Under the pieces are notes generated by a model. That model did not search any database. It saw only the letters and a list, made by a program, of their open reading frames with translations, and had not been told where the DNA came from. The position numbers and the translations under genes were made by a program. Shown here piece by piece: positions 18,016 through 44,532 of a stretch of DNA of 64,000 nt (its first letter is position 1; each line of letters starts with the position of its first letter). Location of the stretch: assembly GCA_964608665.1 (NCBI GenBank), contig CAZSQJ010000008.1:12935-76934 (forward strand), written 5' to 3'. Source of the DNA: an uncultured Bacteroidales bacterium. GTDB taxonomy: Bacteria; Bacteroidota; Bacteroidia; Bacteroidales; CAIXZF01.

Positions 18016-18077
18016 TTGTGTATTATGATAAATAAAAAACCAAATATACGCATTTTATTTATCATGATAAAAATTTA

Positions 18078-24947: not shown

Positions 24948-26225
24948 TCAGAAAACAGTCCTGGAACCGTTCACATCACCGTAACACAGTCCTTTGATCG
25001 TCACCTGTACATTGCTGCTGCCGTCGAACAGCACTTCAGGATTTTCGAAAAGCCAGTCTCCGACCGGGAATCCAAAAATCAAGCCCACAAACCGTTTGGC
25101 TGCCAGGAGGGCATCGGTGGCATTGATGATATGGTTACCGTCGAGGTTTCCGGCTTCTTCCCTCAATCCGGCAAGGCCGCCCAGTCCAACGAACTGCTTC
25201 AGGATCAGCAGGGCATCGTCGGAGTTGACCCCGCCCCAGGGGATGTCTGTCTCAGTGACCAGCCTGTAGATGCCGGGTGAGAGTGCAGGAAAGGAAAAAC
25301 TGCCGTTTGCATCAGTAATGGCAGAATCGGCAATGGTACAGCATCCCACTTTGAGGGACACCTTCACACCGGCCAGGGGTGTTGAATCCGCGTTGTCGTA
25401 GAAAACAATTCCGCCAAGGTCAGCCAGTCCCAGCAAGGTTTCGTATGCAATGGCGGCATCGAAGGTTTCGTTCACCAGTTGCGGTGCTACCAGCTGGGTT
25501 GCGGCGGCATTGGGATGGCTGTCCCATGCAGACACTGCATAGGCCGGGTTCAGGTAGCCCTGAGCATTGGCGACTTTATGGAAATAATCGAATACGTACA
25601 CATTGGGAGGGAATTGTCCGTAAAGCGGGTCAAGGCCGGCAGCCAGGGTATCTTTGGCCCATTTGCTGAAGCGGTGGGAACGCTGGGCTTCATTGTAATT
25701 GGTGGCATTCTGAACCAGTGGCGCATTGGTCCAGATCACGAAAAAATGATCCGGGTGGCTTTCCATTACAGCCACAAATTTCCTCCAGTGCCATTTGTAA
25801 TTGTACACCGTTTTCAAGGTGGGATTCAGGGTGTCTGACGCCTGTCCTTCGGCCACAATGTTAGAACAGGGATAACAGGACTTGATCATCAGGACGGGAT
25901 TCCCGGCGAAGAAACTGAACACATTTTCGGGGTAGGCATCCGTAAAGATGGTATGCCAGGTTGACCATTCATTATCGCTGAAGGAAGGGAACCAGGTTTC
26001 CGTCATACTGACGGCCTGGGCTCCAGAGTATCCGTGTGCCTGGTTGTAAATCTGGATTTGCTGGGGAACGCTTGTAGTACTGCCGTTTGGCCCCCAGATA
26101 TTCCCGCCGGTACTGTGATGCAGGAAGATTCCGTTACGGATGACCGGATTCTGGCCGTATGTCAGACCAGCGATCATGAGTACCAACACCAGGCTGATGG
26201 GACGGTTCAGATTGGAATGGACCAT
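24948..26225 (-). CDS. Secreted protein with an N-terminal SGNH/GDSL-like hydrolase candidate domain plus a C-terminal beta-sandwich and dockerin-like module
   Basis: Signal peptide ISLVLVLMIAGLTYGQ. FLHHSTGGNIW near the N-terminus and WDSHPN (D-x-x-H-like block V) give weak support for an SGNH-like fold. The C-terminus is IPWGGVNSDDALLILKQF...GNLDGNHIINATDALLAAKRF...PVGDW...YGDVNGS. Confidence 0.6.
   Translation of the reverse strand: MVHSNLNRPISLVLVLMIAGLTYGQNPVIRNGIFLHHSTGGNIWGPNGSTTSVPQQIQIYNQAHGYSGAQAVSMTETWFPSFSDNEWSTWHTIFTDAYPENVFSFFAGNPVLMIKSCYPCSNIVAEGQASDTLNPTLKTVYNYKWHWRKFVAVMESHPDHFFVIWTNAPLVQNATNYNEAQRSHRFSKWAKDTLAAGLDPLYGQFPPNVYVFDYFHKVANAQGYLNPAYAVSAWDSHPNAAATQLVAPQLVNETFDAAIAYETLLGLADLGGIVFYDNADSTPLAGVKVSLKVGCCTIADSAITDANGSFSFPALSPGIYRLVTETDIPWGGVNSDDALLILKQFVGLGGLAGLREEAGNLDGNHIINATDALLAAKRFVGLIFGFPVGDWLFENPEVLFDGSSNVQVTIKGLCYGDVNGSRTVF
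24951..25420 (-). other. Beta-sandwich plus dockerin-like module (copy 3 of 4)
   Basis: Aligns by eye with 3241-3708 and 18081-18550. Confidence 0.6.
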
Positions 26226-26228
26226 ATC

Positions 26229-26630
26229 TCAGAGTTTGCTGATTTCGAAAGTGCCCGCATCGACTGTTTGCCTGTTACGGGTGATCTCCACCCGTTTCAC
26301 GACCGCAGTTTGGCCGGCAAGGGTGGTATCTTCGGCAAAAACATAAAGGGTATAATGGCCTTTACGCAGGTATTTGAACTCAAAACGTCCGTCGGGACCG
26401 GTTCTGATCCGGTCACTGTAACTGACATCATCACCATAGACAATATATACCCATTCATCTGCCCCCATATACGTACCCTGGATCACCAGCATGTTCACAT
26501 TGTAATCCGTGACATGGACGGCACCGGTAATTGCGGAATTGCCGCCGGTTCCGGCTTCCTTTTCGCAGGATGCCGTCATCAGGGCAAAGAGGACAAGGAT
26601 CAGGAATCCTGGTTTACGGTTACGCATCAT
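26229..26630 (-). CDS. Small lipoprotein with a carboxypeptidase-regulatory/transthyretin-like beta-sandwich; paralog of 32140..32553
   Basis: Lipobox-like LMTASC. About 45% identity by eye to the 137-aa protein at 32140..32553 (shared CEKE.G.GG, GDD.SYS.R.RT..DG.FEF.YLRKGHY). Confidence 0.7.
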   Translation of the reverse strand: MMRNRKPGFLILVLFALMTASCEKEAGTGGNSAITGAVHVTDYNVNMLVIQGTYMGADEWVYIVYGDDVSYSDRIRTGPDGRFEFKYLRKGHYTLYVFAEDTTLAGQTAVVKRVEITRNRQTVDAGTFEISKL

Positions 26631-26654
26631 GGGTTTATTATTTAAGAGCTCAGG

Positions 26655-29192
26655 TTATGGAAGGTATATCATTTTCAAACTTTTCACCGTATTTCCGGTT
26701 CTGAAGTCCAGGATGTATAATCCGGGACTGAGGTTCAGGGATGCAGGGTTCAGTTTGATGAAATGTTTTCCGGATTCGAGCCTGTTAACCTGCGGCAGTA
26801 CTTCTGACACTAATTTCCCGTCCGGTGTGTACAGTTTCAGGCTGACGAAGGCTGCGGCAGGCAGGTCGACCACCACGGTAGTCAGGTCTCTGGAAGGAGA
26901 CGGAAAGAGATAGGCTTGCGGTGCGGAAGGTTTTTCCGGTACCGGATTCACCGGGGTGATCAGTGAAAAATGGGCCACCAGGGTATCGCTTTGATTCAGG
27001 TTGACCAGGGCCGTATCGGAAGCAGCATTCGGGATGAAGTTCTGGGTATTGGACGACCAGTGATCGAAACAATAGCCGGCATTGGCATAGGCTTCGAGCC
27101 TGGTGCCGATCCCGCCGAAGTAGGTTCCGGTCCATGGGTAAATGAACAGCGGCAGCGAATTGAGCACCACCGAACCGGCATCGGGCGGGTCCACTTTCAC
27201 GGTTACCTGGAAGGGACCATTGAGCCCGTAGCAGTTGGTGAAGCCGTTGCTGAGCCAGGCACATCGCTGGCTGATAAAATCGCGCAGTTCCTGCACATTG
27301 GATTTCCATTCGGTGTATGTACCGTTCCATCTTTGCGCCTGCCTGGTCATTTCAGGATCGATGATCGCTTCTGTACTGTCGAGCTGTGCAAGCATATTAT
27401 CGCAACTGAATACCGTATTCCAAAGGTCAATTTGCCGGGTGATATAATATCTGTTCACTTCAGGGTTTTGTCTGAGATGGTTGAGCAGGGCCATGTGTCC
27501 CTTGGGATCGGAAGAACCCGTCAGCCCGTCCACATTGCAGGGATTTGCCTGAGGGGTGGTATTGGGAATGTTCGTATAATTGATATAATGGCCGAAAGTG
27601 GCATCATTGTCCCACAGTATCCACCCCCATTTAAGGTGGGTTCCGGTACTGTCGAGCCCGCGCCACCATCCCAGGTTCCAGTTGAGCCAGTCGGAGCAGA
27701 CCGTCATTGAATTTACGATCACATAATCGACCAGACTTCTGTAATCGATATAGGTATTCATGTAATTATAATTGGCCGGGCTGGCCATGTTCATGGCCAT
27801 GACTGTGTTATAGAGTGCATTCCAGTCGTTGATGGCCTGCGTGCCGCCATATTCGGCCCAGGTGCTGCCCCAGTGCAGGATGAACTGCAGGTTGTACTTA
27901 TCCTGGCCGTAATAATAGCTGGTATAATCATGATCGTCGCATTTCTCCCGGATGTCATATACGCCCCAATACTGGCCATTAAGGTAGACGACAGCTTTCT
28001 CGGAACGCCGCAGGTTCAGGTGCATTCCCCCGATATCGGCAAGGCTGTGGATGTATGCATCGCGCAAATGGGCACTGCCTTCGTTGGCGGAATGATGGTC
28101 GGCCGGGTAATTGTCATCTCCGGCAGCCCTCAGGATGATGCGCTGGAAATTCTTGCGGTACGACCAATGGAAGAGATATTCCTCGATACTGTGGTTATAG
28201 GCCATTTCATCGCGGGAGATGAAATCGATGCTTCTGTGGCTGAGTGCCCATGAATCCTGTCCGTGCTTGTTAAACTCTCCGTAAGTGGTAGCAGTGCGTT
28301 CGCCGTTAATGTTGAAATACTCGAACGATCCGTGGGGTTCCAGGGATGAATTCCCGTTGGCAAGCGTGTTCAGCTGGGTTCCGGCAACGGAAACAACGAC
28401 GGTGGTATGGTTTTCATTGATAAAATAGGTATTGAACCTGACCAGGCTTGGGAGCACTTCGGGATCGGCGCTGATGGTGATGGCTTTAATCACTGTGGTG
28501 GCTGCTATGGTGATGGGATTCACATAGATGGGACTGGATATGCCTGGTTCCGTCCCATCCAGGGTATAATGAATATCGGCATTGGTTTCGAGGGTGGACA
28601 GGTAAATGGTGACGGGAGTATTGTAAAATCCTGCCGGAAGGTTATAATCGGGACGGTCGGCGTACCGGGCAAAGGGAGTGGCGGTGTTGTTGGAGGCGTT
28701 GATGGTGGGCGAAGTAAAAATACTCCAGGCGGAAGCCCCGTTAAGCGTTCTTCCCCGGGAATGGCCCAGGTGGGTCTTCTTGCGTAACTTCAGGGAATCC
28801 ACAATCGCACCGGAAGGGTCGGCAAGAACGATGAACTCACTGTTGTTTTTTGTTTGCGTGAGCCTGAAATTGGTATGATAATGGGTACCGGACACCATGT
28901 CCCTTCCGGATGTCCAGAACCGCCTGAACCCGTTGGCAGTGATGTTTACCCCCGCAGGTATCTGCCACTTGGTGACATTGGCAGAATCATCGCTCAGGTA
29001 ATAACCGGATAAGTCGACGGTGCTGCTGCCTGCATTGTAGAGCTCGAACCAGTCCTCGTACTTGCCGTAATTATCCTGGAACTGGGTCAGGTTGGAGCAG
29101 GAATACTCGTTGATCACAACCTGGGAATATCCCCTGAACATGCAGCATTGCAGTATCAGGGCAATAAAAGTCAATCGTAACAATTTCTTCAT
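26655..29192 (-). CDS. CotH-family protein (845 aa) with an N-terminal lamin-tail-like domain, a chitobiase/Fn3-associated-like segment and a T9SS type-A CTD
   Basis: Signal peptide. LTD-like VVINEYS...YEDWFELYNAGSSTVDLSGYYLSDD. DIHYTLDGTEP. CotH-like core RIILRAAGDDNYP...LRDAYIHSLA...VVYLNGQYWGVYDIREK. CTD YLFPSPSRDLTTVVV...GLYILDF. Confidence 0.8.
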   Translation of the reverse strand: MKKLLRLTFIALILQCCMFRGYSQVVINEYSCSNLTQFQDNYGKYEDWFELYNAGSSTVDLSGYYLSDDSANVTKWQIPAGVNITANGFRRFWTSGRDMVSGTHYHTNFRLTQTKNNSEFIVLADPSGAIVDSLKLRKKTHLGHSRGRTLNGASAWSIFTSPTINASNNTATPFARYADRPDYNLPAGFYNTPVTIYLSTLETNADIHYTLDGTEPGISSPIYVNPITIAATTVIKAITISADPEVLPSLVRFNTYFINENHTTVVVSVAGTQLNTLANGNSSLEPHGSFEYFNINGERTATTYGEFNKHGQDSWALSHRSIDFISRDEMAYNHSIEEYLFHWSYRKNFQRIILRAAGDDNYPADHHSANEGSAHLRDAYIHSLADIGGMHLNLRRSEKAVVYLNGQYWGVYDIREKCDDHDYTSYYYGQDKYNLQFILHWGSTWAEYGGTQAINDWNALYNTVMAMNMASPANYNYMNTYIDYRSLVDYVIVNSMTVCSDWLNWNLGWWRGLDSTGTHLKWGWILWDNDATFGHYINYTNIPNTTPQANPCNVDGLTGSSDPKGHMALLNHLRQNPEVNRYYITRQIDLWNTVFSCDNMLAQLDSTEAIIDPEMTRQAQRWNGTYTEWKSNVQELRDFISQRCAWLSNGFTNCYGLNGPFQVTVKVDPPDAGSVVLNSLPLFIYPWTGTYFGGIGTRLEAYANAGYCFDHWSSNTQNFIPNAASDTALVNLNQSDTLVAHFSLITPVNPVPEKPSAPQAYLFPSPSRDLTTVVVDLPAAAFVSLKLYTPDGKLVSEVLPQVNRLESGKHFIKLNPASLNLSPGLYILDFRTGNTVKSLKMIYLP

Positions 29193-29248
29193 AAATATGA
29201 TGGCTTGGTTATCAAAATTAAGTTAATTTCAGATACGCTTTATCACTT

Positions 29249-29351
29249 TATACCGAAAGAGTACAGGAATGCGAAAAATGTGTTTCCAGAGTCCTCGGTA
29301 TAACTGAATCTAAGCGAAAATTGCATTGCATTTTCACCAAGATTCAGCATA
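29249..29351 (+). repeat. Copy B of the roughly 103-nt multi-hairpin intergenic repeat
   Basis: Aligns to copy A without gaps (88 of 103 identical). It lies in the 173-nt spacer between the DUF2490-like gene and CotH-1. Confidence 0.8.
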
Positions 29352-29365
29352 GTTTCCAGCTGACC

Positions 29366-30055
29366 TTAAAACCTTAAATAGTAACCCGCTCCAACCACAT
29401 AATCAGCTTCAGGATACCTCACCCCGTACTCCCGCTGAAAAAGGTAAAACAGGTCGATCATATGCATGCGGTTGATACGGTATTCCACTCCGCCGATAAA
29501 CCTTACCTGATCAATCCCGGCAAACTGCGGTTTTGCAACGGGCAGGAAAACCTCGGCATTGACATAGGGTTCGAGCGGTGATTTGTTATCGTATGAGAGA
29601 TTCAGTCTGAACCGGGTATAATATTCGGGTACTTTACCATCAACACTGGAGTACATGTCGGTGAACTGGGTCTGGAACCTGGTTCTGAATGAAACTCTGA
29701 TCCTGTTGAGTTTTTCGCGGATCGTAAGCTGTGCATACCACCGGTGCCGCTTGCTGTATGAATCGTCGAGGCGCCGTTTGCAGGAGAATCGGTAATTTGC
29801 CGACACCCTTACATTCTGATGAAGCCGGTAATCAAGTCCCAGGTCGGTAAACACCGTTCCGGCCTCAGTAATGTTCTCGTTCATCCGTGATTCTGCCGAA
29901 AGTGAAACTGAAAACCTGGATGTGAGTTTCTTTTCTGCATTGAGGCTGATCCATAATCCGGCATCATTCACCTGGGCTGAAAGCGGTGAAATGGCAGCCA
30001 GCATGTACACCATGACTGCCATCAGGCCAGGCCGGAACAACAGGCGGATCTTCAT
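29366..30055 (-). CDS. DUF2490-like predicted outer-membrane protein
   Basis: Signal peptide ending SAQ. Alternating beta-strand pattern, GLWISLNAEKKL...SAESRMNEN start, and a C-terminal aromatic (YYLRF). Confidence 0.6.
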   Translation of the reverse strand: MKIRLLFRPGLMAVMVYMLAAISPLSAQVNDAGLWISLNAEKKLTSRFSVSLSAESRMNENITEAGTVFTDLGLDYRLHQNVRVSANYRFSCKRRLDDSYSKRHRWYAQLTIREKLNRIRVSFRTRFQTQFTDMYSSVDGKVPEYYTRFRLNLSYDNKSPLEPYVNAEVFLPVAKPQFAGIDQVRFIGGVEYRINRMHMIDLFYLFQREYGVRYPEADYVVGAGYYLRF

Positions 30056-30810
30056 TTATCCGTTTCGGTTTTCTTTGTTTCGTAATAGTACACCATGATC
30101 TCCGCGGCATCTCTCATATAATTCACCCTGGAGATCTTAACCCGGTGTACCGGTAATCCGGTTCGTTTCCGGATGTCTTCCAGCAGGATCTCCATTTTGT
30201 CGGGTGTGATGTTTTCTGTGTTGTCATAATAGATCAGCCTGGAATGTTCCCTGCGAAAGAAGATATTGCTGTCATAAATGAATGTCAGCAGAAAGACCAC
30301 ACCGTTGATGATGAGAAGTTCATGGTATTCCAGTTCGATGGCGCTGATCAGGCCGATACCGATAAAGATGAACAGATAGGTCAGTTCTTTCATGGAGATG
30401 CCCTCGGTACGGTATCTGAGCATGGAGAAGACCGCGAAAAGTCCGAAGGCAGCCCCGACCGAAATTTTAATCTTATTCAGCAGGAATGTCAGCATAAAGA
30501 TCATTACATTGAACATCATATAGGTGAAAATGCTCTCGTGATGTCCTCCGTTGCGCCTGAAAACCAGAAGAATGATTAAAAGGAAGCTGACCAGGTCGAT
30601 CAGCAGGTACACAAAGAAGCGCTGGTCAATTTCCACCACGTCCTTTTTCTTGTCGGGTTTCTTTTCTTTTTTTTCATCCTTGCTCGCGGCATCATCTTCC
30701 TGTACAAGGGACACCATTCCCGTTTCCGCCTCCTGCGCCCTGAGCGGCACAGCGGGCATGGCCGTGAGGGCAAAAAGGAGCGCGATCAAAGACAGTTTAA
30801 TTATGTTCAT
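30052..30810 (-). CDS. DUF4956-like polytopic membrane protein
   Basis: N-terminal hydrophobic segment, charged stretch DDAASKDEKKEKKPDKKKDVVE, then 4-5 TM helices including FSMLRYRTEGISMKELTYLFIFIGIGLISA (compare the DUF4956 motif ...LR[FY]RT...). It overlaps both neighbours (4 nt and 14 nt). Confidence 0.6.
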   Translation of the reverse strand: MNIIKLSLIALLFALTAMPAVPLRAQEAETGMVSLVQEDDAASKDEKKEKKPDKKKDVVEIDQRFFVYLLIDLVSFLLIILLVFRRNGGHHESIFTYMMFNVMIFMLTFLLNKIKISVGAAFGLFAVFSMLRYRTEGISMKELTYLFIFIGIGLISAIELEYHELLIINGVVFLLTFIYDSNIFFRREHSRLIYYDNTENITPDKMEILLEDIRKRTGLPVHRVKISRVNYMRDAAEIMVYYYETKKTETDK

Positions 30811-31561
30811 GACTGATTTTTTGGATGCGTCTGATTTTGGACCTGAAATTATTGGTTTTCACATCATCGTAGAGGCTGATGATCCCAAGGATGTATTTAC
30901 TGACCGATAACCTCCTGATATGCAGTTGCTTCATCAGGATAAGAAATGGGGAGGCCGCAGATTTCTGAATTTTCAGCTCTGCGATTACCAGGGAGGGATA
31001 AGCTGCAGTTTGAGTTCCGTTGGTATAGGAAAGATGTGTATCAATTGTGAGGCGTTCCCTTTTGGCCAGGTTGACCAGCGTAATCCGCTTGTAATTGATC
31101 CAGAGCCGGGGCAGAAGGGTAAGTTCCGACAAGGCCGGGCGGGCTCTCATGAAGGATTCGGCTTCACCGCTGATGGATTCTTCCACCATCATTCTGCTGA
31201 TCCTTTCCTTGATTGTCCGGGCATGGTTGTTCTTAAACTTGATCTCGAAGAAACTCTGACCGCTGTCGAGATAAGACCTGTATCTGACTTTGTAGCGGTT
31301 CATGTGGCGATTGTGGTGAAGCCGGTAAAAAAGCATGTCCTCTGTATCGAAATACAGGTTGCAATAGCGGTTCTCAATGGTATTCCTCACCTTCAGCACG
31401 TGATATTCCGGCATGAGTGCAAGCAATACGTCAGGAAGCTGGCTGACATGGAATACGAATTTGGTATCTATCCTGTCCATCAGGGCTACCTGATCCATCT
31501 CTTTGAGGGTGATGGCCGGGAAACGGGATAATATTTCATTCAGATCCTGCATGGAATTCAT
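30797..31561 (-). CDS. VTC-domain (polyphosphate polymerase-like, triphosphate-tunnel) protein
   Basis: LMDRIDTKFVF...RYCNLYFDT...YRLHHNRHMNRYKVRYRSY...FFEIKFKNN...LTIDTHL...VIAELK matches my memory of bacterial VTC-domain proteins. No signal peptide. I chose the ATG at 31561; the track TTG start is at 31570. Confidence 0.65.
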   Translation of the reverse strand: MNSMQDLNEILSRFPAITLKEMDQVALMDRIDTKFVFHVSQLPDVLLALMPEYHVLKVRNTIENRYCNLYFDTEDMLFYRLHHNRHMNRYKVRYRSYLDSGQSFFEIKFKNNHARTIKERISRMMVEESISGEAESFMRARPALSELTLLPRLWINYKRITLVNLAKRERLTIDTHLSYTNGTQTAAYPSLVIAELKIQKSAASPFLILMKQLHIRRLSVSKYILGIISLYDDVKTNNFRSKIRRIQKISHEHN

Positions 31562-31576
31562 TAAGGTCAAACGTCA

Positions 31577-32134
31577 TCAATGATAGTCGTATGAATATTT
31601 TTTCGAGGATTGTACCTTTCCGGAAGGATCCAATACCTGTTTCGTGACTTTTAATTTCTTGTTGTTATAGGTGAATACCAACTTCTTCATCAGTTCTCCC
31701 TGCTCATTAAAAACACTTTCACTGATTTTCTCACCGTCCGGCCCGTATGTAAACACGGTTTTTCCCTTCAGTTTTCCCGCAGCATCATATTCGAGCTCCT
31801 CTGTTTTATCACCCATCGCGTTGTATTTGAACTGAAGCCTGTAGTTGATCTTTTGCCCGGGATTGAAAAAACTTTCTGCTGTCTTGTTACCGTCACTGTC
31901 GTAAGTTACGAGGTGTTTGCTGATGATGGTGCCATCCGGCGCATATTCAATTGCAGTAATGAGCTTCCCGCTCTTGTTGTATTCCTCGTATGTTTCCTTC
32001 ACGGCCTGGTTTCCGGAGGTTTCTGACCAGGTGGTCACCGATTTGATCTTTTTGGACTTGACTTCCTTTTTACTCTGACCGCAGACAGAAGCAGACAGCA
32101 TCACGAAGGACAACATTAACAGAAAAATTCGCAT
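31577..32134 (-). CDS. Small secreted protein or lipoprotein made of short YD/MORN-like repeats
   Basis: Signal peptide MRIFLLMLSFVMLSASVCGQ (ATG at 32134; track TTG at 32143). Repeated x-Y-D/N-x-x-G-K/N-x segments (YAPDGTII, TYDSDGNKT, EYDAAGKLK, TYGPDGEKI). Confidence 0.6.
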   Translation of the reverse strand: MRIFLLMLSFVMLSASVCGQSKKEVKSKKIKSVTTWSETSGNQAVKETYEEYNKSGKLITAIEYAPDGTIISKHLVTYDSDGNKTAESFFNPGQKINYRLQFKYNAMGDKTEELEYDAAGKLKGKTVFTYGPDGEKISESVFNEQGELMKKLVFTYNNKKLKVTKQVLDPSGKVQSSKKYSYDYH

Positions 32135-32139
32135 GACTC

Positions 32140-32553
32140 TCAATCAAATATCACAATATCAGACACTTCGACCTTCTGTTTTCGTTTTATGATCTCCACC
32201 TCCCTGATCACTGCCACAGGGGCATTAGTCTGAAGGGTGGAGTCCCTGGAGTAAGCATAGACCCTGTAATGTCCCTTTCTCAGGTAACGGAACTCAAAAG
32301 TGCCGTCATAATTGGTTCTGAGCCTTTCGCTGTAGGACTTGTCATCCCCGCAAACCAGGTAAACTTCCACGTCTCCTGCGTAATACGCTTCTTCAAGGAC
32401 GGTAAAGGTAGCATTATAATCCTTCACATAGACTTTCCCCCAGATGGAAGCTTCTCCACCGAAGCCGGGTTCTTTCTCACAGGCCGTCAGCAGGATGGTA
32501 ATGCCGGACAGCAGGCAGGCCTTAACCAGCAGCATTTTTAGCAATCTGTCCAT
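32140..32553 (-). CDS. Small lipoprotein with a carboxypeptidase-regulatory/transthyretin-like beta-sandwich; paralog of 26229..26630
   Basis: Lipobox LLTAC. See the paralog alignment under 26229..26630. Confidence 0.7.
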   Translation of the reverse strand: MDRLLKMLLVKACLLSGITILLTACEKEPGFGGEASIWGKVYVKDYNATFTVLEEAYYAGDVEVYLVCGDDKSYSERLRTNYDGTFEFRYLRKGHYRVYAYSRDSTLQTNAPVAVIREVEIIKRKQKVEVSDIVIFD

Positions 32554-32565
32554 GCCAGGGTCGCA

Positions 32566-33762
32566 TTAATGTTGTATGGCAATTTTCCGGGCAGATGTTC
32601 CGCAGGATACCAGGTAGATTCCGCCGGCCCAGCCGGAAGTGGCCGTGGTAAATTCTCCTGAAACAATGCCGCTGCATATCGTTCTCCCCACATTATCCAT
32701 AATACGGAAGGGGTAATGTCCGGGTTTCTCCGTTCTTACCGAAAGTTGACCAGATGCGGGATCGTGACTTACAGTGAAATCCATACCGGAAAGAACATCA
32801 TTCAGTCCGAGATTTCCCGGAATCACGCAGGAAACACCTCCACCCGTTGCCACCCACAGATTATCCGCCTGATCGGTGGTCACCCTGACAACCATATCAT
32901 TAACCAGGCCATCGGCAGGGGTCAGGCTCACCCAGTTGTTGCCGTCGAAGCGGCTCAATCCGCCTTCCAGAATATAAATATCGAACATCCCTGCCCAGAT
33001 CTTACCCTGGCTGTCGGTGGTCAGATCGGCAACAAAATTGCTGTAAAGCCCGTCGTTAACGGTATGATTGCCGGTCACCTGGCCTGCAGGGTTCAAAACC
33101 GAGATCCCATAATAACTTCCTGCCCAGATATTTCCGTTTGCATCTTCGGTGATGGTCAGAATATTATCATCGAGCAGGCCATTGGCCATGGTTATGTATG
33201 TGAAACCACTTCCGTTGTTTCTGGCAAGACCGCCCATGATGGTACCAACCCACATGGTTCCGGCATCATCAAAATATATGAATACAGGCAATCCCTGGCT
33301 AAGGTTATAACTCAGGAAATTAATGCCATCGTAGCGCGACAGCCCGGAAGGCGTGGCAAACCACACATGCCCCTGTGCATCGACGGCTATATGGGTTACT
33401 GTATTGTCGATCAGGCCGTTGCCGGTGGTGTAAGACGTCCAGTTCTGGCCGTCGAAGCGGCTCACTCCGTAATCTGTGCCCACCCAAACCCTGTTGTTTG
33501 CATCCACCGCGATACAATTAATAAAATTGTCGATGACGCCATGGGGCGTGGTATACACCACCCAGTTGGTGTCGTTGTAACTCGCCACGCCCGACTGGGT
33601 TCCGAACCATTTGATGTTGTGCTGGTCAACAACCACACCGGTGACGTTGTCATCGGGCAGACCAGTGGTGGCTGCGGTGAAATTCTTGATAAGCGTCTGG
33701 CCTGAGAGGCTGACCGAAAAAATCATCAGCACTGCCATAAAAGGGGAAAAATACCTTTTCAT
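32566..33762 (-). CDS. Beta-propeller protein with two-component-regulator-propeller (Reg_prop)-type repeats and a T9SS-type CTD
   Basis: Signal peptide. Repeats of about 45 aa such as WFGTQSGVASYNDTNWVVYTT, VWVGTDYGVSRFDGQNWTSYTT and VWFATPSGLSRYDG. The C-terminal roughly 80 aa resemble a sorting domain (FTVSHDPASGQLSV...GIYLVS). Confidence 0.7.
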   Translation of the reverse strand: MKRYFSPFMAVLMIFSVSLSGQTLIKNFTAATTGLPDDNVTGVVVDQHNIKWFGTQSGVASYNDTNWVVYTTPHGVIDNFINCIAVDANNRVWVGTDYGVSRFDGQNWTSYTTGNGLIDNTVTHIAVDAQGHVWFATPSGLSRYDGINFLSYNLSQGLPVFIYFDDAGTMWVGTIMGGLARNNGSGFTYITMANGLLDDNILTITEDANGNIWAGSYYGISVLNPAGQVTGNHTVNDGLYSNFVADLTTDSQGKIWAGMFDIYILEGGLSRFDGNNWVSLTPADGLVNDMVVRVTTDQADNLWVATGGGVSCVIPGNLGLNDVLSGMDFTVSHDPASGQLSVRTEKPGHYPFRIMDNVGRTICSGIVSGEFTTATSGWAGGIYLVSCGTSARKIAIQH

Positions 33763-33793
33763 GATATTAATATTTAAGTTAGTATATTAATGT

Positions 33794-35728
33794 TCAATCT
33801 ATTACATGAATCTTTGAGCATGCGCCGGCTCCGGTCGACGATCTCAGTCTGAGGAAATAAACACCGGTCTTCAGGCCGTCGAGGTTGATGGCCTTCACAT
33901 TCCTGCCCCGGAATACCAGGCATCCGGGTCCGTCGAAGAGGTCAACTTCAAAATTCTGTTCCCGGGTAAGCCGGCCCTGAAGGTAAAGCACATCCCTGAC
34001 AGGATTGGGCAAAACGATGAGTGCCGGTTCCTGCAGGGCATCATCCATGCCGACACCGGTGAAATTAAAGGGATCGGACAAGGCTGACATACATCCGCCG
34101 CTATTAGCGGTCTGCACCTGATAGAGTCCATTCTGCAGGGGTGTATAAAGCTGCGACGTGGCACCGTTGATGGGCTGACCGGCCAGAAACCACTGGTAGG
34201 TGGTAGCCTGGCTGGAGATCAAATCTCCTCCGGATTGCGTGATGACGGGTGTTGCGGGAATGGGATGCACCGTTACCGTGACTGAAGCGGTGGCGCTGTC
34301 ATTGCCACTGACGGCTTTCACGGTATAAACGGTAGTGGTTGCGGGATAAACCCAGGGAGACTGCAGGGTGGATGTGAAACCTGCAGGATCGGAAGTCCAG
34401 GTGTATACGACACTGGTGCCGCCGGTAACAGTTGCACTGAGCTGGGATGAATCGCCTTCGCAGATGACTGCGGGACTGGCATTTGCCGTTACGGAATAAC
34501 CGGCAACATAAGCGGCTGTATAACGGAATGCCTGGGCCGGCGTGCCGGAAACCGATTTACTCCAGACCACCGTATTGTTCGAATCAATCTCATAAATATA
34601 TCCTGAGCCGGCAATGCAGATCAGCACATTCCCGTTGGGCAGCTGCTGTGAATTGCCCATGTCCTGTGTGGCATTACCCGTATAGATATGCCGCCATTCA
34701 TAGGTGGAAGGCGCATAGGCCTGTCCGGTGGTATGCAGGTAGTTGTAACCGTCGTAGGGAGGATAGATCCTGTCGATGCAACTCTTGTTGCCGGTACCTC
34801 CCTTGTTATTGAATGCCACAAGACTTCCGGCATGCGGCAAACCGGTCTGTATCCAGTGTGCGTCGTGCATTACATTAAAAATGGTAGTTCCGGAAGCACC
34901 GTATGCGGCAGGGTTTCCCCAGCGGTATAGGAAATCTCCCCCCTTGCCTGAATTGCCACCGGTATGGCCGGCAGCTTCGGCCGTGGTGGTGCTGTGGTCG
35001 ATCACCCAGTATTCGTTGAGGTAATGAGAACTGACCACGATCTGGTCCAGTTCCGGGTTATAGTCGATCCCGTTCATGTGAACCCAGTCCTTCTTCAGAT
35101 TGTAGTTGATATTCATCAGTTCCGGATGGGCCAGCACGGATGTGACATAATTATCTTTGGACTGGTCATGGGTCTGGCACAGGTGATCCCATAATTTCCA
35201 CTCCCAGACGACCGTTCCGGTGGTCGCACCCGTCGGCTGAACCTCCATGATCTTTTCTGACCAAACGGTGATACTCTGGGAAGAACCCGCCTGTACAGCC
35301 TGCGCAGCAGTTTTCACCTCATAAGAGATCATGAGCACATTGCCGTTGGGCATGGGGTGTATGTCGTGGTGAAGGCAATAGGTGGAAGAGGAATGGGTGA
35401 AATCCCACAGCACCGTGCCGTTCCAGTCAACCTTCTGTACCCGGCCTGTCATTCCGCCTCCAAAGAGCACATTGCCCTGATTGCTAACGGTCCTGACCAG
35501 GGTTCCCCCGGGCAGAAGATAGCTGGAGTAGCCGGTCCTGGCCGATGACGGAAAGGTCCAGCTGTGGTAAGTGGCCCCGCTCATATTTACCAGATATGCC
35601 TTGGTACTGTTCATGGTGCTGTAAAGGGTATAATCGCCCCAGGGTGCGCCCTGGGAAAACACCAGTGATCCTGAAAAACACAGCAGGATGATCATTACGG
35701 GCACATGCAGTTTCAGTTTATGTCTCAT
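33794..35728 (-). CDS. Arylsulfotransferase (ASST)-like beta-propeller protein with an Ig-like domain and a T9SS type-A CTD
   Basis: HHDIHPMPNGNVLMI, HMNGIDYNPELDQIVVSSHYLNEYWVIDHS and GGDFLYRWGNP resemble the ASST family. CTD VLPNPVRDVLYLQG...GVYFLRL. Confidence 0.65.
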   Translation of the reverse strand: MRHKLKLHVPVMIILLCFSGSLVFSQGAPWGDYTLYSTMNSTKAYLVNMSGATYHSWTFPSSARTGYSSYLLPGGTLVRTVSNQGNVLFGGGMTGRVQKVDWNGTVLWDFTHSSSTYCLHHDIHPMPNGNVLMISYEVKTAAQAVQAGSSQSITVWSEKIMEVQPTGATTGTVVWEWKLWDHLCQTHDQSKDNYVTSVLAHPELMNINYNLKKDWVHMNGIDYNPELDQIVVSSHYLNEYWVIDHSTTTAEAAGHTGGNSGKGGDFLYRWGNPAAYGASGTTIFNVMHDAHWIQTGLPHAGSLVAFNNKGGTGNKSCIDRIYPPYDGYNYLHTTGQAYAPSTYEWRHIYTGNATQDMGNSQQLPNGNVLICIAGSGYIYEIDSNNTVVWSKSVSGTPAQAFRYTAAYVAGYSVTANASPAVICEGDSSQLSATVTGGTSVVYTWTSDPAGFTSTLQSPWVYPATTTVYTVKAVSGNDSATASVTVTVHPIPATPVITQSGGDLISSQATTYQWFLAGQPINGATSQLYTPLQNGLYQVQTANSGGCMSALSDPFNFTGVGMDDALQEPALIVLPNPVRDVLYLQGRLTREQNFEVDLFDGPGCLVFRGRNVKAINLDGLKTGVYFLRLRSSTGAGACSKIHVID

Positions 35729-35746
35729 ACATTTTACGTATTACAT

Positions 35747-38047
35747 TTATAAAAGGATGAATTTACTTTTTATTGAATGTGATTTTGCGCTCAGGCTGAT
35801 GACATACACCCCTTGCGGGAGACCGCTTAAATCAATCAAGCAGGTTTGTCTGCCCGGCAATCCGGATCCCGCTAACGAATAGGAACGGACCAGCAGGCCT
35901 TGTGCGTCGGAAACATGAACCTCAGCAAGGCCGGGCTGGCTGTCGTATTCGATATAGACCCGGCTTTGCGCGGGATTGGGATAAATCCTGAGCCCTGCAG
36001 CAGGACAGACCGGGTAAAAATTCCGCAAGCCTTTGGAGGGTTGCATATTCACAAAAGGGCCATATCCGTTTGGGTAGCGGCCCGTGGACAAGCCGGGTGA
36101 CTGCAGGCCGTATGTCACCGAATCGATGAGGATCCCCTCATCGGTAATGAGTCTAAGCTGTCCGCCTTCGGCAGGAAGGGAAATCGCCGCTGCTATTTCA
36201 GGTCCGGCCTGAAATTCAATGGGTTGCACCACGAGGTAAGTGTTTGCCGGCATTACCGTATCCGGGAAAGTCCACTGGAAAGGATTTTCCGGGGAGCCGG
36301 ACAAGCACAGCCCCTTCAGGCTGACCGGTTCATGTGTATTGTTAAAGAGTTCAAGCCAGGCATGCGGCCGGACGGCTCCTTCGGTAACATCGCAGCGGGG
36401 AGGTTTAACCTCATTGATCACTACATCCCCGGAAATCAGCCGGGTCTGAAGGGTATAAAACGCATGTGCCGCTCTTTCGGGACTGAAGGCGGCTGCGCTG
36501 TCATTTTCAGCATAGCAATAATATTGCATGTTCACGCCGCTGACAGGAACCGAAACAGCAAAAACCCCGTCGCCGGCCATTCCGTCCTGGTGCATTCCGT
36601 CGTCAAACATAGCCATTGGGGTAAAGACATCCCGGCTGTGCTGCCTCAGGTAAATCATTACGCTTGTGGCACCGGGTACCTGCACGCTGAAACGGCATTG
36701 CTGCCCCCGGAGCGGCACCGGCGGATCATGTGTCACATCGGAAATGACCGGCGCACCTGAATATCCGGGATAAGAGGCTAAATAGCTGATCCTCGCCTCC
36801 ATCAGGGATTTCAGGCCGGGATAAGCCAGCATGCCGCCACTGCCCCCAACCGTGGTATCGCGGTTCAGCAGGAAATCCGCATAAGAATAGAACTTATTGG
36901 TATCGGCCAGAACGTGGACATTCACAACAGCCTGCCACTGTCCGGCAAGCCGGTAATACTCCCCGCTTACCAGGTTTTCCTCCGCAATGGTCCGGATATG
37001 CGCCAGATACATTTTCCGCAGGGTATCGTTTTCAAAAAGCCTGGTCATCAACGGTCTCGGAGAAACAGAGAAGGTGAGGTGCTGCAGTGGATCAAGCACA
37101 GTGAGTTCATCGATGCTCAGCCCGAGGTAATGATGTGATCCGTCAGAATTCCTGAATGAGCCGAATGACATATTCAAATCCCAGGGTACCGGGTTAAAAA
37201 GCCCGTTATCGTCCTGGTACATATAATAATTCTGTGCATAGCCGATATAGGAATCCAGGTTCAGGGTCACGTAATTGAAGGCATGCATCCAGAGGGTCTG
37301 ATCCACATTCAGAACTGTCCCGACTTTTTCAGGGTCATTGTTCAGGATATCAGTTAGATGCACGATGGATTTCCATCCCGTATCAGATTCCAGTTCGTAG
37401 TACGGCAGGTAAGCCGATGTGTCACTTCCCCGGTAGCTCAGGTTGGCATTCTGCCCGAAAGGATATTGCAATTGGTCCGGACTGCCTTTGAAAAAGCAGT
37501 TATCGTTGGACGGGAAGTGCCTGCCGATGAATCCTTTATCCACAGATTCCACATTGGTGTAAAGCCCTGCAAGGGTATCGTTTACATAAACATTGGCAAA
37601 TCCTGCCCGGGACGCAGGCATGTATTTGCGTGCAATATGGTAAGCCAGTACTTCCCGGACAAAAGAAGGATCGTGGATCACATTGCTGAGTTTCAGTTTG
37701 GTAAACCCATCATGATTCCGGTTATTGATCTTATAATCCAGTTCAATGTTGAAGGGATTCTTGGCTGAACCAGGATTCCAGGAACTGTATCCTTTGTAAC
37801 GGATACCCGCATCTTTGTACAGGTACCCGTCTATCATCACATCTCCCGTGATCCTGCCCTGCCCGGCTTCGATCAGGCTGTCGAGAAGGGAAGCCCAGTT
37901 GCCGGCATGGAAATAAATTCTGACCTCATGTACCCTGTCGGGTGAATAAAAATCCTCCTGTGCCATAACCTGACTATGGTATCCAAGGATACACAATGCC
38001 AGCATAGCAATGATTATCAAACTCTTAAACTCTGAAGCAGCCTTCAC
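35747..38047 (-). CDS. CotH-family protein (766 aa) with a C-terminal lamin-tail-like domain and a T9SS type-A CTD
   Basis: CotH-like core FNIELDYK...FTKLKLSNVIHDPSFVREVLAYHIARKY...FANVYVNDTLAGLYTNVESVDK. LTD-like VVINEVK...HAWLELFNNTHEPVSLKGLCLS. CTD RIYPNPAQSRVYIEY...GVYVISL. GTG start. Confidence 0.8.
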   Translation of the reverse strand: MKAASEFKSLIIIAMLALCILGYHSQVMAQEDFYSPDRVHEVRIYFHAGNWASLLDSLIEAGQGRITGDVMIDGYLYKDAGIRYKGYSSWNPGSAKNPFNIELDYKINNRNHDGFTKLKLSNVIHDPSFVREVLAYHIARKYMPASRAGFANVYVNDTLAGLYTNVESVDKGFIGRHFPSNDNCFFKGSPDQLQYPFGQNANLSYRGSDTSAYLPYYELESDTGWKSIVHLTDILNNDPEKVGTVLNVDQTLWMHAFNYVTLNLDSYIGYAQNYYMYQDDNGLFNPVPWDLNMSFGSFRNSDGSHHYLGLSIDELTVLDPLQHLTFSVSPRPLMTRLFENDTLRKMYLAHIRTIAEENLVSGEYYRLAGQWQAVVNVHVLADTNKFYSYADFLLNRDTTVGGSGGMLAYPGLKSLMEARISYLASYPGYSGAPVISDVTHDPPVPLRGQQCRFSVQVPGATSVMIYLRQHSRDVFTPMAMFDDGMHQDGMAGDGVFAVSVPVSGVNMQYYCYAENDSAAAFSPERAAHAFYTLQTRLISGDVVINEVKPPRCDVTEGAVRPHAWLELFNNTHEPVSLKGLCLSGSPENPFQWTFPDTVMPANTYLVVQPIEFQAGPEIAAAISLPAEGGQLRLITDEGILIDSVTYGLQSPGLSTGRYPNGYGPFVNMQPSKGLRNFYPVCPAAGLRIYPNPAQSRVYIEYDSQPGLAEVHVSDAQGLLVRSYSLAGSGLPGRQTCLIDLSGLPQGVYVISLSAKSHSIKSKFILL

Positions 38048-38296: not shown

Positions 38297-38485
38297 AAAT
38301 CACGGGTAAAACCCTCCGACTGCGTCGGGATTGTTCGACTTTCAAATTTCATTGCACGATGTTTATGAAATTTGAGTCTCACAAAAATACTTCAGAACAG
38401 TGTACGGCATTACTCATTCTACCCAGCTTTTCTTCGCAAACCTGGCAAGAATGAGTATAAATAAAGCATCAGGGCTTTCAGCAGG

Positions 38486-44518: not shown

Positions 44519-44532
44519 TGATCAGGTTGAAA

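Follow-up and report, generated by a model that had tools for sequence, protein, structure and literature searches.

A Widely Conserved Bacteroidota Gene Cluster of VTC-Domain, DUF4956, DUF2490, and Secreted CotH Proteins

Gene Organization of the Cluster

The cluster lies in a 64,000-nucleotide stretch of DNA from an uncultured Bacteroidales bacterium, referred to here as the window. Between positions 26229 and 38047, 10 genes are found, all on the minus strand (Table 1), and every family named in the original prediction was present with strong Pfam E-values. Eleven consecutive minus-strand genes had been claimed for this range. The co-directional run was correct, but the count was not, the eleventh being a 425-aa gene just outside the range. 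The entire co-directional run covers 13 genes, from 39739 to 23808. Independent gene calls on a sister contig gave the identical 13-gene order, with the CotH_A homolog called as 750 aa.

Table 1. Genes and promoter-like motifs of the cluster, in window positions
Feature	Position	Strand	Basis
CotH_A	35747-38047	-	ORF and Pfam; alternative start is an ATG 42 nt downstream
ASST-like	33794-35728	-	ORF and Pfam
Reg_prop	32566-33762	-	ORF and Pfam
lipB	32140-32553	-	Small lipoprotein ORF
YD-like	31577-32143	-	ORF; start TTG 32143 or ATG 32134
VTC	30797-31561/31570 (two candidate starts)	-	ORF and Pfam
DUF4956	30052-30810	-	ORF and Pfam
DUF2490	29366-30055	-	ORF and Pfam
CotH_B	26655-29192	-	ORF and Pfam
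lipA	26229-26630	-	Second copy of the small lipoprotein
Bacteroidota-type -7 promoter-like motif TAnnTTTG	38382..38389	-	In the 438-nt gap upstream of CotH_A; consensus match only
TAnnTTTG motif	29213..29220	-	28 nt upstream of the CotH_B start; consensus match only

The ORF coordinates reproduced the predicted overlaps of 14 nt between VTC and DUF4956 and of 4 nt between DUF4956 and DUF2490. Gaps of 3-5 nt had also been described. The 3-nt gap between lipA and the next gene (24948-26225) was confirmed, but the 5-nt gap between lipB and the YD-like gene holds only with the ATG start and becomes a 4-nt overlap with the TTG start. A 173-nt gap between DUF2490 and CotH_B, on which the original prediction was silent, is the sole internal gap exceeding 100 nt; the remaining intergenic gaps are 12-31 nt. 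The motif in this gap makes a second transcription start upstream of CotH_B possible, the 64-kb window having a background of ~0.19 TAnnTTTG matches per kb on each strand. Because the gap and its promoter-like motif split the cluster, the case for a single transcript is weakened. The genes make up two conserved modules, probably co-transcribed, which between them reach across the whole cell envelope.

VTC-Domain Protein and Its Membrane Partner

The VTC assignment was borne out by Pfam (90.4 bits against a gathering cut-off of 23, E 1.7e-25), and the protein matches a 254-aa NCBI entry at 100% identity. According to Pfam, this 254-aa protein is a VTC domain alone, and both an SPX domain and a VTC1-type (DUF202) transmembrane channel are absent. 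Alone among the ten gene products, it has no export signal, and it is cytoplasmic. Its partners carry such signals, and the compartments are those that the original prediction had proposed, with all three represented. An AF2 model (pLDDT 90.9) was searched with Foldseek and matched yeast Vtc4 best (3g3r, 3g3q, and 8i6v; E ~1e-11, TM 0.63). The top 13 matches were the tunnel domains of Vtc4, Vtc3, and Vtc2 (E 1e-11 to 2e-9, TM 0.57-0.63), followed by tripolyphosphatases, thiamine triphosphatase, and adenylate cyclases (E 2e-9 to 1e-4). As modeled, the protein is an eight-stranded beta-barrel with the anticipated triphosphate-tunnel fold, closest to yeast Vtc4. PDB sequence searches returned a marginal Vtc2 match alone (E 0.022) and yielded no residue-level alignment to Vtc4. 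The invariant residues are R30/K34, R89/K91/R93/R95, E106/K108/K110, K118/R120, R159, E169/R170, E195/K197, and S221/K222, and the Arg, Lys, and Glu among them alternate with i, i+2 spacing on the modeled barrel strands. No biochemistry of any bacterial VTC-domain protein was found in the literature searched.

DUF4956 was likewise assigned as predicted (Pfam E 8.7e-44). The protein consists of a cleavable signal peptide, a Lys/Asp/Glu-rich linker, five transmembrane helices, and a C-terminal ACT/ferredoxin-like domain (AF2 model, pLDDT 73.5). This overall plan of five helices and an ACT-like C-terminus is similar to that of the MgtC family. The C-terminal domain weakly resembles ACT regulatory domains, as also noted elsewhere (PMC12345266). 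No fold or sequence relative was found in the PDB, VTC cryo-EM entries included. Since DUF4956 resembles neither the VTC1-type channel nor any solved transporter, a channel role is an assumption. Membership in the MgtC family has been proposed (PMC12345266); when the DUF4956 profile was aligned to E. coli YhiD with hhalign, the probability was 0.09, in what is a weak test with a single-sequence template.

Outer-Membrane Candidates, Lipoproteins, and YD-Repeat Protein

The DUF2490 protein, whose assignment also held (Pfam E 2.2e-31), has a signal peptide, ~10-11 alternating amphipathic strands, and a C-terminal Phe (ending YYLRF), and it is predicted to be a small outer-membrane beta-barrel. 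Seven arginines are conserved (R57/R89/R105/R124/R148/R150/R185). A PDB sequence search with this protein gave no match. The two small lipoproteins are paralogs, as had been proposed (46% identical, E 2e-37), with lipoboxes MTASC in lipA and LLTAC in lipB; the latter has a transthyretin/CarboxypepD_reg-like beta-sandwich and weak fn3_3 and CarboxypepD_reg matches. The YD-like product, a small protein of the anticipated type, carries a signal peptide for export and YD/RHS repeats in which the hairpin motif Yx(D/N)xxG occurs six times. Its own profile matches are weak (RHS_repeat, MORN_2, YD), and two of its homologs carry PF05593.

CotH Proteins and the Secreted Trio

CotH_A comprises a signal peptide, a CotH kinase domain, a choice-of-anchor-X-like segment, a lamin-tail domain (LTD), and a type-A T9SS C-terminal domain (Pfam CotH 6.8e-41, LTD 1.1e-8, Por_Secre_tail 6.2e-10; NF041940 match; PDB 5JD9 match, E 2.2e-8). 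In CotH_B, the signal peptide is followed by the lamin-tail domain, CHB_HEX_C/Fn3_assoc, the CotH kinase domain, an InlB-B-repeat-like segment, and a T9SS C-terminal domain (CotH 5.6e-29, LTD 1.8e-13, CHB_HEX_C_1 7.8e-16). The LTD thus lies at opposite ends, as originally described (CotH_A residues 539-647, C-terminal; CotH_B residues 22-135, N-terminal). The pair had been called paralogs. Both are CotH proteins, but BLASTP aligns them only within the LTD; they represent different CotH subfamilies and are not recent paralogs. In all aligned CotH sequences (40/40), both proteins here among them, the catalytic Asp, the Asn, and the metal-binding Asp never vary, and these active-site residues are thus intact. 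These residues align to D224/N229/D247 of B. cereus CotH (5JD9); from spacing and motif context, we take D224 and D247 to correspond to D228 and D251 of B. subtilis.

Two propeller proteins accompany CotH_A. The ASST-like protein is built from a beta-propeller of the arylsulfotransferase family, Ig-like repeats, and a C-terminal T9SS domain (Arylsulfotrans 6.7e-17, Arylsulfotran_2 3.3e-13, Por_Secre_tail 5.4e-8) and matches the PDB by sequence through its Ig-like repeats only. Reg_prop is a beta-propeller with a signal peptide (Pfam Reg_prop 4.7e-26) and a partial PorZ-like match. Sorting domains were scored with PF18962 and TIGR04183 (cut-off 23). Both CotH proteins end in one, as predicted: CotH_A by both models (39.7 and 30.8 bits) and CotH_B by TIGR04183 only (24.9 bits), PF18962 falling below its cut-off. 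Both propellers had been called T9SS cargo. This stands for the ASST-like protein, which passes PF18962 (33.4 bits) but not TIGR04183 (19.6 bits), whereas Reg_prop has the propeller and a C-terminal segment that resembles a T9SS domain at a sub-threshold score (TIGR04183, 16.4 bits).

Conservation and Linkage

Linkage was assessed in 80 species-level VTC loci with enough flanking sequence, with denominators varying by gene. A five-gene conserved core was found, comprising the small lipoprotein, YD-repeat protein, VTC, DUF4956, and DUF2490, each occurring with VTC in 84-97%. DUF4956 adjoins VTC in 72/74 Bacteroidota loci. The YD-repeat protein occurs in 70/75 VTC loci, always immediately upstream of VTC, a lipoprotein homolog in 62/70, and DUF2490 in 58/69; 15 adjacent lipoprotein-DUF2490 pairs were seen. 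The original core of VTC, DUF4956, and DUF2490 was therefore right in its families but too small, as the small lipoprotein and YD-repeat protein accompany VTC in 89-93% of loci, compared with ~50% for CotH. In the gut model B. thetaiotaomicron, the DUF4956 and DUF2490 genes lie side by side (BT3498-99, PMC10434189).

The ASST-like, CotH, and Reg_prop genes form a separate trio with 94-100% mutual adjacency: the ASST-like gene adjoins A-type CotH in 58/62 metagenome loci and Reg_prop does so in 50/50. The two CotH genes do flank the core as predicted, but they are not a simple bracket, since the A-type CotH belongs to its own trio, often without VTC. CotH lies ≤10 kb from VTC in 25/49 Bacteroidota loci, VTC follows A-type CotH in 15/31, and the trio and the VTC module adjoin in about half of loci, whichever of the two is taken as the starting point. 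B-type CotH was seen near VTC in 10 loci, and the CotH genes found with the VTC module, in differing gene orders, come from at least two subfamilies. In some loci, CotH is joined to lipoprotein-DUF2490 without a VTC gene. Pairs of a LytS-like kinase and a LytTR regulator recur near the VTC module. The co-occurrence counts across the comparison loci put the arrangement far beyond chance. The cluster is real and widely conserved in Bacteroidota.

Outside Bacteroidota, all annotated plasmid loci (5/5) have VTC next to DUF4956, with this adjacency seen in replicons of Aminobacter, Shinella, and Nitratireductor (Alphaproteobacteria) and of Deinococcus, where the pair is present with CotH. Most of these Alphaproteobacteria and Deinococcus loci have neither CotH nor DUF2490. 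Neighbors outside Bacteroidota include a Pi transporter, phytase-like esterases, a HAD phosphatase, and phnDCE. The bacterial VTC family is sizeable (8087 cluster representatives), and its members nearly always have one membrane protein as partner, in at least five phyla with literature cases included.

The triad itself is already known beside Gram-positive pel operons, where CotH, polyphosphate-polymerase-domain, and DUF4956 genes were described by Whitfield et al. (2020, PMC7112168) and in S. intermedius (SIR_1592-1594, PMC12345266). It is also present in C. perfringens NELoc-2 (PMC2879425), and CotH lies next to VTC-DUF4956 in Streptococcus, Clostridium, and Bifidobacterium (PMC7112168, PMC2879425). 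These cases and our counts confirm the co-occurrence that the original prediction had mentioned. As a correction to that prediction, the triad is not new to the literature: it has been described and partly mutated, and deleting its DUF4956 or CotH gene in S. intermedius lowers Pel-dependent aggregation (PMC12345266). The same 2025 study did not find the triad outside pel loci, but it does occur there, in this window and in the 25/49 Bacteroidota loci. New here are the five-gene Bacteroidota core, the separate secreted trio module, and the VTC-DUF4956 pair in Deinococcus and Alphaproteobacteria.

Possible Function of the Two Modules

We tentatively favor the reading that the lipoprotein, YD-repeat protein, VTC, DUF4956, and DUF2490 (module 1) form a polyphosphate synthesis and translocation apparatus working like eukaryotic VTC, on whose polymer a surface CotH module would depend. 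The cytoplasmic VTC tunnel enzyme would polymerize the gamma-phosphate of ATP and pass the chain to DUF4956, the inner-membrane partner with which it is translationally coupled. In Bacteroidota, the product could move onward via the periplasmic YD-repeat protein and then the arginine-lined DUF2490 barrel with its lipoprotein partner. Module 2, a CotH kinase with the ASST-like and Reg_prop propellers and a second CotH of another subfamily, would leave the cell by type IX secretion. It may act on a protein or glycan at the cell surface, requiring the module 1 polymer as donor or co-substrate. The reading as a whole, in which polymerase activity, the direction of transport, and the tie between polyphosphate and CotH are inferred, is supported by the Vtc4 matches of the high-confidence VTC model, the invariant basic and acidic strand residues, the adjacency of VTC and DUF4956, and the phosphate-related neighbors in other phyla. 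It also agrees with the start/stop overlaps linking VTC, DUF4956, and DUF2490, with VTC alone lacking an export signal, and with the barrel features and seven conserved arginines of DUF2490. Further support comes from the proximity of CotH to VTC, the position of VTC after A-type CotH, the recruitment of at least two CotH subfamilies, the invariant CotH active-site residues, and the S. intermedius deletion phenotypes (PMC12345266).

Several observations weaken it. In roughly half of loci each module is found unaccompanied by the other, and CotH-lipoprotein-DUF2490 loci can lack VTC. In addition, the tunnel-enzyme superfamily also takes in hydrolases and cyclases, and we know of no protein-kinase-fold enzyme with polyphosphate as donor. 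The VTC-like protein might accordingly be such a hydrolase or cyclase acting on a triphosphate, forming with DUF4956 a signaling or regulatory unit that governs how a surface polymer is produced or modified. The effect of the triad on Pel levels in Streptococcus would fit this, as would the recurring LytS-like/LytTR pairs and the presence of superfamily hydrolases and cyclases among the structural matches. However, the Vtc4 matches are better by several orders of magnitude, the Pfam model matched is VTC and not CYTH, and the neighbors in other phyla are phosphate-related, not polysaccharide-related; we regard this alternative as quite improbable. Phosphate storage or homeostasis is an unlikely but more serious contender. 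Polyphosphate would then remain at the inner membrane, on its cytoplasmic face, with DUF4956 as an anchor or regulator whose ACT-like domain (PMC12345266) senses a metabolite. DUF2490 and the lipoprotein would take up phosphate-containing nutrients, and the secreted CotH, ASST-like, and Reg_prop proteins would be scavenging or binding proteins co-regulated by phosphate status. The phosphate-related surroundings of the Alphaproteobacteria and Deinococcus pairs, mostly without CotH or DUF2490, agree with this, and the DUF2490 arginines suit anion uptake as well as an export channel. Yet storage does not require that the polymerase have its own polytopic membrane partner, the gene overlaps and the analogy with a product-translocating eukaryotic complex better fit a coupled conduit, and the conserved CotH active site argues for catalysis, not binding alone.

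The two modules could also be functionally independent, their vicinity in some Bacteroidota lineages reflecting inherited synteny. This is consistent with the occurrence of each by itself in roughly half of the loci that have enough flank, with 34/79 CotH-centered loci having the trio only, and with the relatedness of many sampled genomes. Against it, CotH lies beside VTC-DUF4956 in the unrelated phyla of Deinococcus, Streptococcus, Clostridium, and Bifidobacterium (PMC7112168, PMC2879425), and the CotH subfamilies and gene orders differ. Moreover, at 8087 cluster representatives among 1.84 billion proteins, VTC would be expected by rough estimate in well <1% of random 20-kb windows. We consider independence very unlikely.

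The polyphosphate literature consulted names PPK1 and PPK2, with archaeal PPK3, as the prokaryotic synthases and treats VTC4 as eukaryotic. A bolder version of the polyphosphate apparatus reading, which we judge improbable in full, would be a third, VTC-type bacterial route, with export via DUF4956 and, in Bacteroidota, DUF2490, and with secreted CotH proteins using polyphosphate instead of ATP on surface proteins or glycans. If VTC-DUF4956 makes and translocates polyphosphate, it would constitute a new bacterial pathway and a route to extracytoplasmic polyphosphate, and a candidate answer to the phosphate source of secreted CotH kinases. If CotH uses the exported polymer as donor, this would explain how these kinases work outside the cell. 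Since the triad affects Pel-dependent aggregation in the pathogen S. intermedius and B. thetaiotaomicron has BT3498-99 (PMC10434189), genetic tests are feasible.

Comparison with Known Systems

Synthase-dependent exopolymer export (alginate, Pel, cellulose, PNAG) follows a like logic of cytoplasmic polymerase, inner-membrane partner, periplasmic protein, and outer-membrane barrel with lipoprotein. The likeness is one of analogy only: no homologous components were detected, and the proposed polymer, inorganic polyphosphate, is not a polysaccharide. The Gram-positive Pel accessory module, cotH-PPP-DUF4956-DUF4832 next to pelDEADAFG, shares the three families in adjacent genes and a secreted CotH. 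In contrast, the triad here is enlarged by DUF2490, the lipoprotein, YD-repeat, ASST-like, and Reg_prop proteins, and T9SS sorting domains. Neither Pel-specific families nor DUF4832 turned up in the 38 window ORFs that were scanned, and the sole glycosyltransferase, a generic GT4, recurs only in the close sister contig, with no homolog in 159 comparison loci.

The eukaryotic VTC complex (Vtc4/Vtc3/Vtc1) has the same cytoplasmic tunnel domain of the VTC Pfam family, with Vtc4 as the best structural match, and in both the enzyme has an obligatory polytopic membrane partner, as would be expected if synthesis and translocation are coupled. The bacterial system differs in having no SPX and no fused or VTC1-type transmembrane domain, in its DUF4956 membrane partner, and in its marginal sequence similarity to yeast. 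Its YD-repeat, lipoprotein, and outer-membrane barrel partners are specific to diderm Bacteroidota. The Bacillus spore-coat kinase CotH (5JD9) belongs to the same Pfam family as CotH_A and CotH_B and has the Asp/Asn/Asp residues conserved here. Unlike it, the Bacteroidota proteins are not spore proteins but large multidomain T9SS cargo with lamin-tail domains.

Gene Organization and Domain Assignments

By ORF listing and spacing, thirteen genes run in one direction on the minus strand between 39739 and 23808. The original prediction of eleven consecutive minus-strand genes in 26229-38047 was correct in direction but not in count, as that range holds ten. The overlaps of 14 nt between the VTC and DUF4956 genes and of 4 nt between the DUF4956 and DUF2490 genes were exact, and only 3 nt separate lipA from the gene after it. 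For lipB and the YD-repeat gene, the choice of start codon gives either a 4-nt overlap or a 5-nt gap. A 173-nt gap between DUF2490 and CotH_B, absent from the earlier description, contains one Bacteroidota-type TAnnTTTG motif, and another lies in the 438-nt gap upstream of CotH_A; both are consensus matches only. Scanning the window for sigma-70 promoters and terminators was uninformative for a Bacteroidota genome, and a repeat scan found no tandem repeats. On a sister-species contig (VTC protein 85% identical), where genes were called and given Pfam labels independently, all 13 genes recur.

Pfam searches recovered the expected families: CotH in two proteins (6.8e-41 and 5.6e-29), the three core families, and the Reg_prop and ASST-like calls; the YD/RHS signals of the 188-aa product were weak. 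The LTD domain was found at opposite ends of CotH_A and CotH_B. T9SS sorting domains had been assigned to both CotH proteins; the assignment held for CotH_A and, by the TIGR model only, for CotH_B. The ASST-like sorting domain exceeded the threshold by the Pfam model only, and the Reg_prop score fell under it. The lipoproteins lipA and lipB are true paralogs (46% identity). CotH_A and CotH_B share a family but are not recent paralogs; their alignment is confined to the LTD, and their subfamilies differ. Nine of the ten products begin with an export signal ending in a small residue then Gln, or in a lipobox Cys; Gln at +1 is typical for Bacteroidota signal peptidase I substrates. The exception is VTC, which is therefore the sole cytoplasmic protein among the ten. 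By sequence, the ASST-like protein matched PDB entries through Ig-like repeats only, and a word-index search found only 4 relatives of the YD-repeat protein. A defense-system reading was rejected because PADLOC matched 0 of the ten proteins.

Coordinates of cluster genes and of features at the window and comparison loci (L001-L080, VTC-centered; L166, sister contig)
Feature	Sequence	Position (nt)	Details
CotH_A	Window, minus strand	35747-38047	
ASST-like	Window, minus strand	33794-35728	
Reg_prop	Window, minus strand	32566-33762	
lipB	Window, minus strand	32140-32553	
YD-repeat protein	Window, minus strand	31577-32143	
VTC	Window, minus strand	30797-31561	Pfam 1.7e-25
DUF4956	Window, minus strand	30052-30810	Pfam 8.7e-44
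DUF4956 charged segment	Window, minus strand	30640-30735	Residues about 26-57
DUF2490	Window, minus strand	29366-30055	Pfam 2.2e-31
CotH_B	Window, minus strand	26655-29192	
lipA	Window, minus strand	26229-26630	
Exported protein, 425 aa	Window	24948-26225	GDVNGS/DGNHIINATD dockerin-like motifs
Exported protein, 1220 aa	Window	751-4413	Dockerin_1 2.6e-7
Type II restriction-modification pair	Window	21078-22662	N6/N4 DNA methylase, EcoO109I-like endonuclease
Site of the restriction-modification pair	L166 (sister contig)	17667-20756	Nothing at the site
Omp28-like genes	Window	42479-46401	Two tandem paralogs, T9SS C-terminal domains
LytS-like/LytTR pair	L068	2107-3856	
LytS-like/LytTR pair	L093	15271-17141	
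X25-like T9SS cargo, 339 aa	L008	2089-3105	
PorV/C25 peptidase	L018	12964-14280	
PorV/C25 peptidase	L028	14195-18094	

Two Linked Modules

Conservation was assessed at 80 Bacteroidota VTC loci (43-53% identical; one genome per GTDB species), whose six-frame ORFs were queried with the window proteins and counted where flanks sufficed. The recurring order was [ASST-like, (Reg_prop), CotH], lipoprotein, YD, VTC, DUF4956, DUF2490. VTC was accompanied by DUF4956 at 72/74 loci, the YD-repeat protein at 70/75, the lipoprotein at 62/70 and DUF2490 at 58/69. CotH was present at 25/49 (15/33 with full flanks) and the ASST-like protein at 13/33. Fifteen extra adjacent lipoprotein-DUF2490 pairs at these loci suggest that the two proteins act together. 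From the other side, 79 metagenome loci centered on A-type CotH were scanned: Reg_prop adjoined CotH in 50/50, ASST-like in 58/62, and VTC followed in 15 of the 31 with at least 7 kb downstream. These adjacency counts therefore resolve into two tight modules, one of five genes around VTC and the other a secreted trio (ASST-like, CotH and Reg_prop); about half the time the two are joined. Two linked modules describe the system better than a core bracketed by CotH kinases, as originally proposed, although the domain calls behind that picture stand.

Among annotated plasmid and megaplasmid records outside Bacteroidota, Deinococcus taeanensis carries CotH, VTC and DUF4956 together; with the CotH counts at VTC loci, this bears out the co-occurrence of the three in other genomes. 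In a second Deinococcus, an HAD phosphatase and phnDCE adjoin VTC-DUF4956. Aminobacter and Shinella have DUF4956, VTC and a phytase-like esterase, and Nitratireductor has these plus a Pi transporter. VTC and DUF4956 together therefore form the universal unit. One such pair, with 53% identity to that of the window (L002, NZ_FZMP01000233.1; protein P0020), lies on a contig labeled Candidatus Methanoperedens; the contig probably comes from Bacteroidota and was mis-binned into an archaeal MAG.

Features of the Individual Proteins

Structure prediction for VTC (pLDDT 90.9) upheld the proposed triphosphate-tunnel fold, with yeast Vtc4 tunnel domains as top PDB structural matches (E about 1e-11, TM 0.63). 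Sequence searches of the PDB, with either the protein or its profile, yielded no more than a marginal match to Vtc2. Across thirty homologs, Arg, Lys and Glu are invariant at alternating positions on the modeled strands, the pattern expected for a charged tunnel. A literature search found no published characterization of a VTC-domain protein from bacteria, and VTC4 is still listed as eukaryotic in a 2026 paper.

The DUF4956 model (pLDDT 73.5) begins with a signal-like helix at the N-terminus and a disordered linker rich in Lys, Asp and Glu. Five membrane helices, within which the stretch GAAFGLFAVFSMLRYR is invariant, and a C-terminal beta-alpha-beta-beta domain follow. The linker (consensus K-KKKDKKK-KD) follows the signal peptide, is conserved in Bacteroidota and would face the periplasm under the inferred topology; the homologs from Deinococcus and Alphaproteobacteria are shorter (194-212 aa) and probably do not have this N-terminal extension. 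The MgtC-like label used in the literature was not confirmed, because DUF4956 had no sequence match and no significant fold match in the PDB and its profile showed no similarity by hhalign to YhiD, an MgtC-family protein of E. coli. DUF2490 combines a signal peptide and a C-terminal Phe with ten or eleven amphipathic strands and seven conserved arginines, sequence features that fit a small barrel in the outer membrane whose lumen is basic. Its profile gave only non-significant PDB matches.

The CotH active site appears intact, as had been proposed for checking: Asp, Asn and Asp aligned to B. cereus CotH D224, N229 and D247 are kept in 40/40 proteins (both window proteins and 38 others). Spacing and motif context equate D224/D247 with B. 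subtilis D228/D251, and mutating the latter inactivates the B. subtilis kinase (PMC7821199). No paper linking CotH with type IX secretion was found in a literature search.

Variant Arrangements and Neighboring Genes

At L094, L099 and L118, the trio is joined directly to lipoprotein-(YD)-DUF2490, without VTC or DUF4956 in between, so the barrel and lipoprotein may have a role of their own in serving the trio. At L045, L052 and L077, lipoprotein-YD-DUF4956-DUF2490 lies on one strand without VTC, whose gene converges from the opposite strand. Several MAGs have two VTC loci apiece. A LytS-like histidine kinase and LytTR response regulator, a candidate regulator of the system, sit beside the VTC/CotH cluster at 11-18 loci of the first set and 5-6 of the second (examples among L001-L080 and L093); no such pair adjoins the cluster in the window. 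A 339-aa T9SS cargo with a pullulanase X25-like domain lies between ASST-like and CotH at 16 VTC loci and is absent from the window. At about ten loci, T9SS genes for PorV and a C25 peptidase, which we take to be PorU-like, follow the VTC module at a distance of a few kb; this nearness may be lineage synteny or a real T9SS link.

In the window, a restriction-modification pair sits between genes for an FkbM methyltransferase and a heparinase-II/III-like protein. The sister contig, otherwise syntenic, lacks it, which suggests that it was inserted or lost recently. In two exported proteins, a CarboxypepD_reg-like domain occurs together with a dockerin-type segment, an unusual pairing to find alongside T9SS cargo. 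Three proteins on the cluster flanks (the 425-aa protein, the GT4 and the LamG protein) were rejected as system members, with homologs at 0/159 comparison loci and only in the close sister contig. MazG, ApbE, an Nqr subunit, RecG and cytidine deaminase, which recur near the trio, were set aside as they look like one lineage's housekeeping synteny.

Proposed Mechanism and Alternatives

Starting from the observed parts, linkage, VTC fold, conserved residues and compartments, we infer polymerase activity, transport direction and the link to CotH by analogy with the eukaryotic VTC complex. The cytoplasmic tunnel enzyme would make a phosphate polymer from ATP and feed the chain to DUF4956, whose gene overlaps that of VTC and which carries an invariant Arg-Tyr-Arg motif; the inferred topology would place this motif where a membrane helix ends on the cytoplasmic side. 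In Bacteroidota, the chain would pass onward via the YD-repeat protein in the periplasm and via DUF2490, as an arginine-rich barrel, together with its lipoprotein. At the surface, T9SS-delivered CotH kinases and the ASST-like and Reg_prop propellers would act on protein or glycan, a step needing the polymer.

Other readings, each judged less likely, were weighed against this export scheme. The neighbors of VTC-DUF4956 outside Bacteroidota point to phosphate metabolism, and the system could be one of phosphate storage or uptake, with DUF4956 as an anchor or regulator. The VTC-like protein could also be a non-polymerase tunnel enzyme in signaling; among its structural matches, YgiF, CYTH cyclases and thiamine triphosphatase scored below Vtc4. 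A further reading is two independent modules side by side, through synteny alone. The VTC family has only 8087 cluster representatives among 1.84 billion proteins, and by rough estimate well under 1% of random 20-kb segments would contain a VTC gene, even at one copy per genome.

Under the export scheme, the system may represent a bacterial polyphosphate pathway of the VTC type and may supply phosphate to extracellular kinases. Both ideas are directly testable in organisms that are already genetically tractable.

Comparison with Known Systems

The finding is real and the domain calls are accurate. In the window, a known gene triad takes on a new and expanded diderm form. Parts of it have been recorded elsewhere, with CotH next to VTC-domain genes in C. 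perfringens NELoc-2 (PMC2879425) and neighboring DUF4956 and DUF2490 genes at B. thetaiotaomicron BT3498-99 (PMC10434189). Beside Gram-positive pel operons, CotH, a polyphosphate-polymerase-domain protein and DUF4956 are accessory genes (PMC7112168). DUF4956 and CotH mutants of S. intermedius showed less aggregation and less Pel, and the same study reported the triad as not found beyond pel loci (PMC12345266). In contrast to the Gram-positive arrangement, the window triad stands without pel genes among the 38 ORFs scanned. Together with the Bacteroidota loci, it shows that the CotH/VTC/DUF4956 triad does occur outside pel loci.
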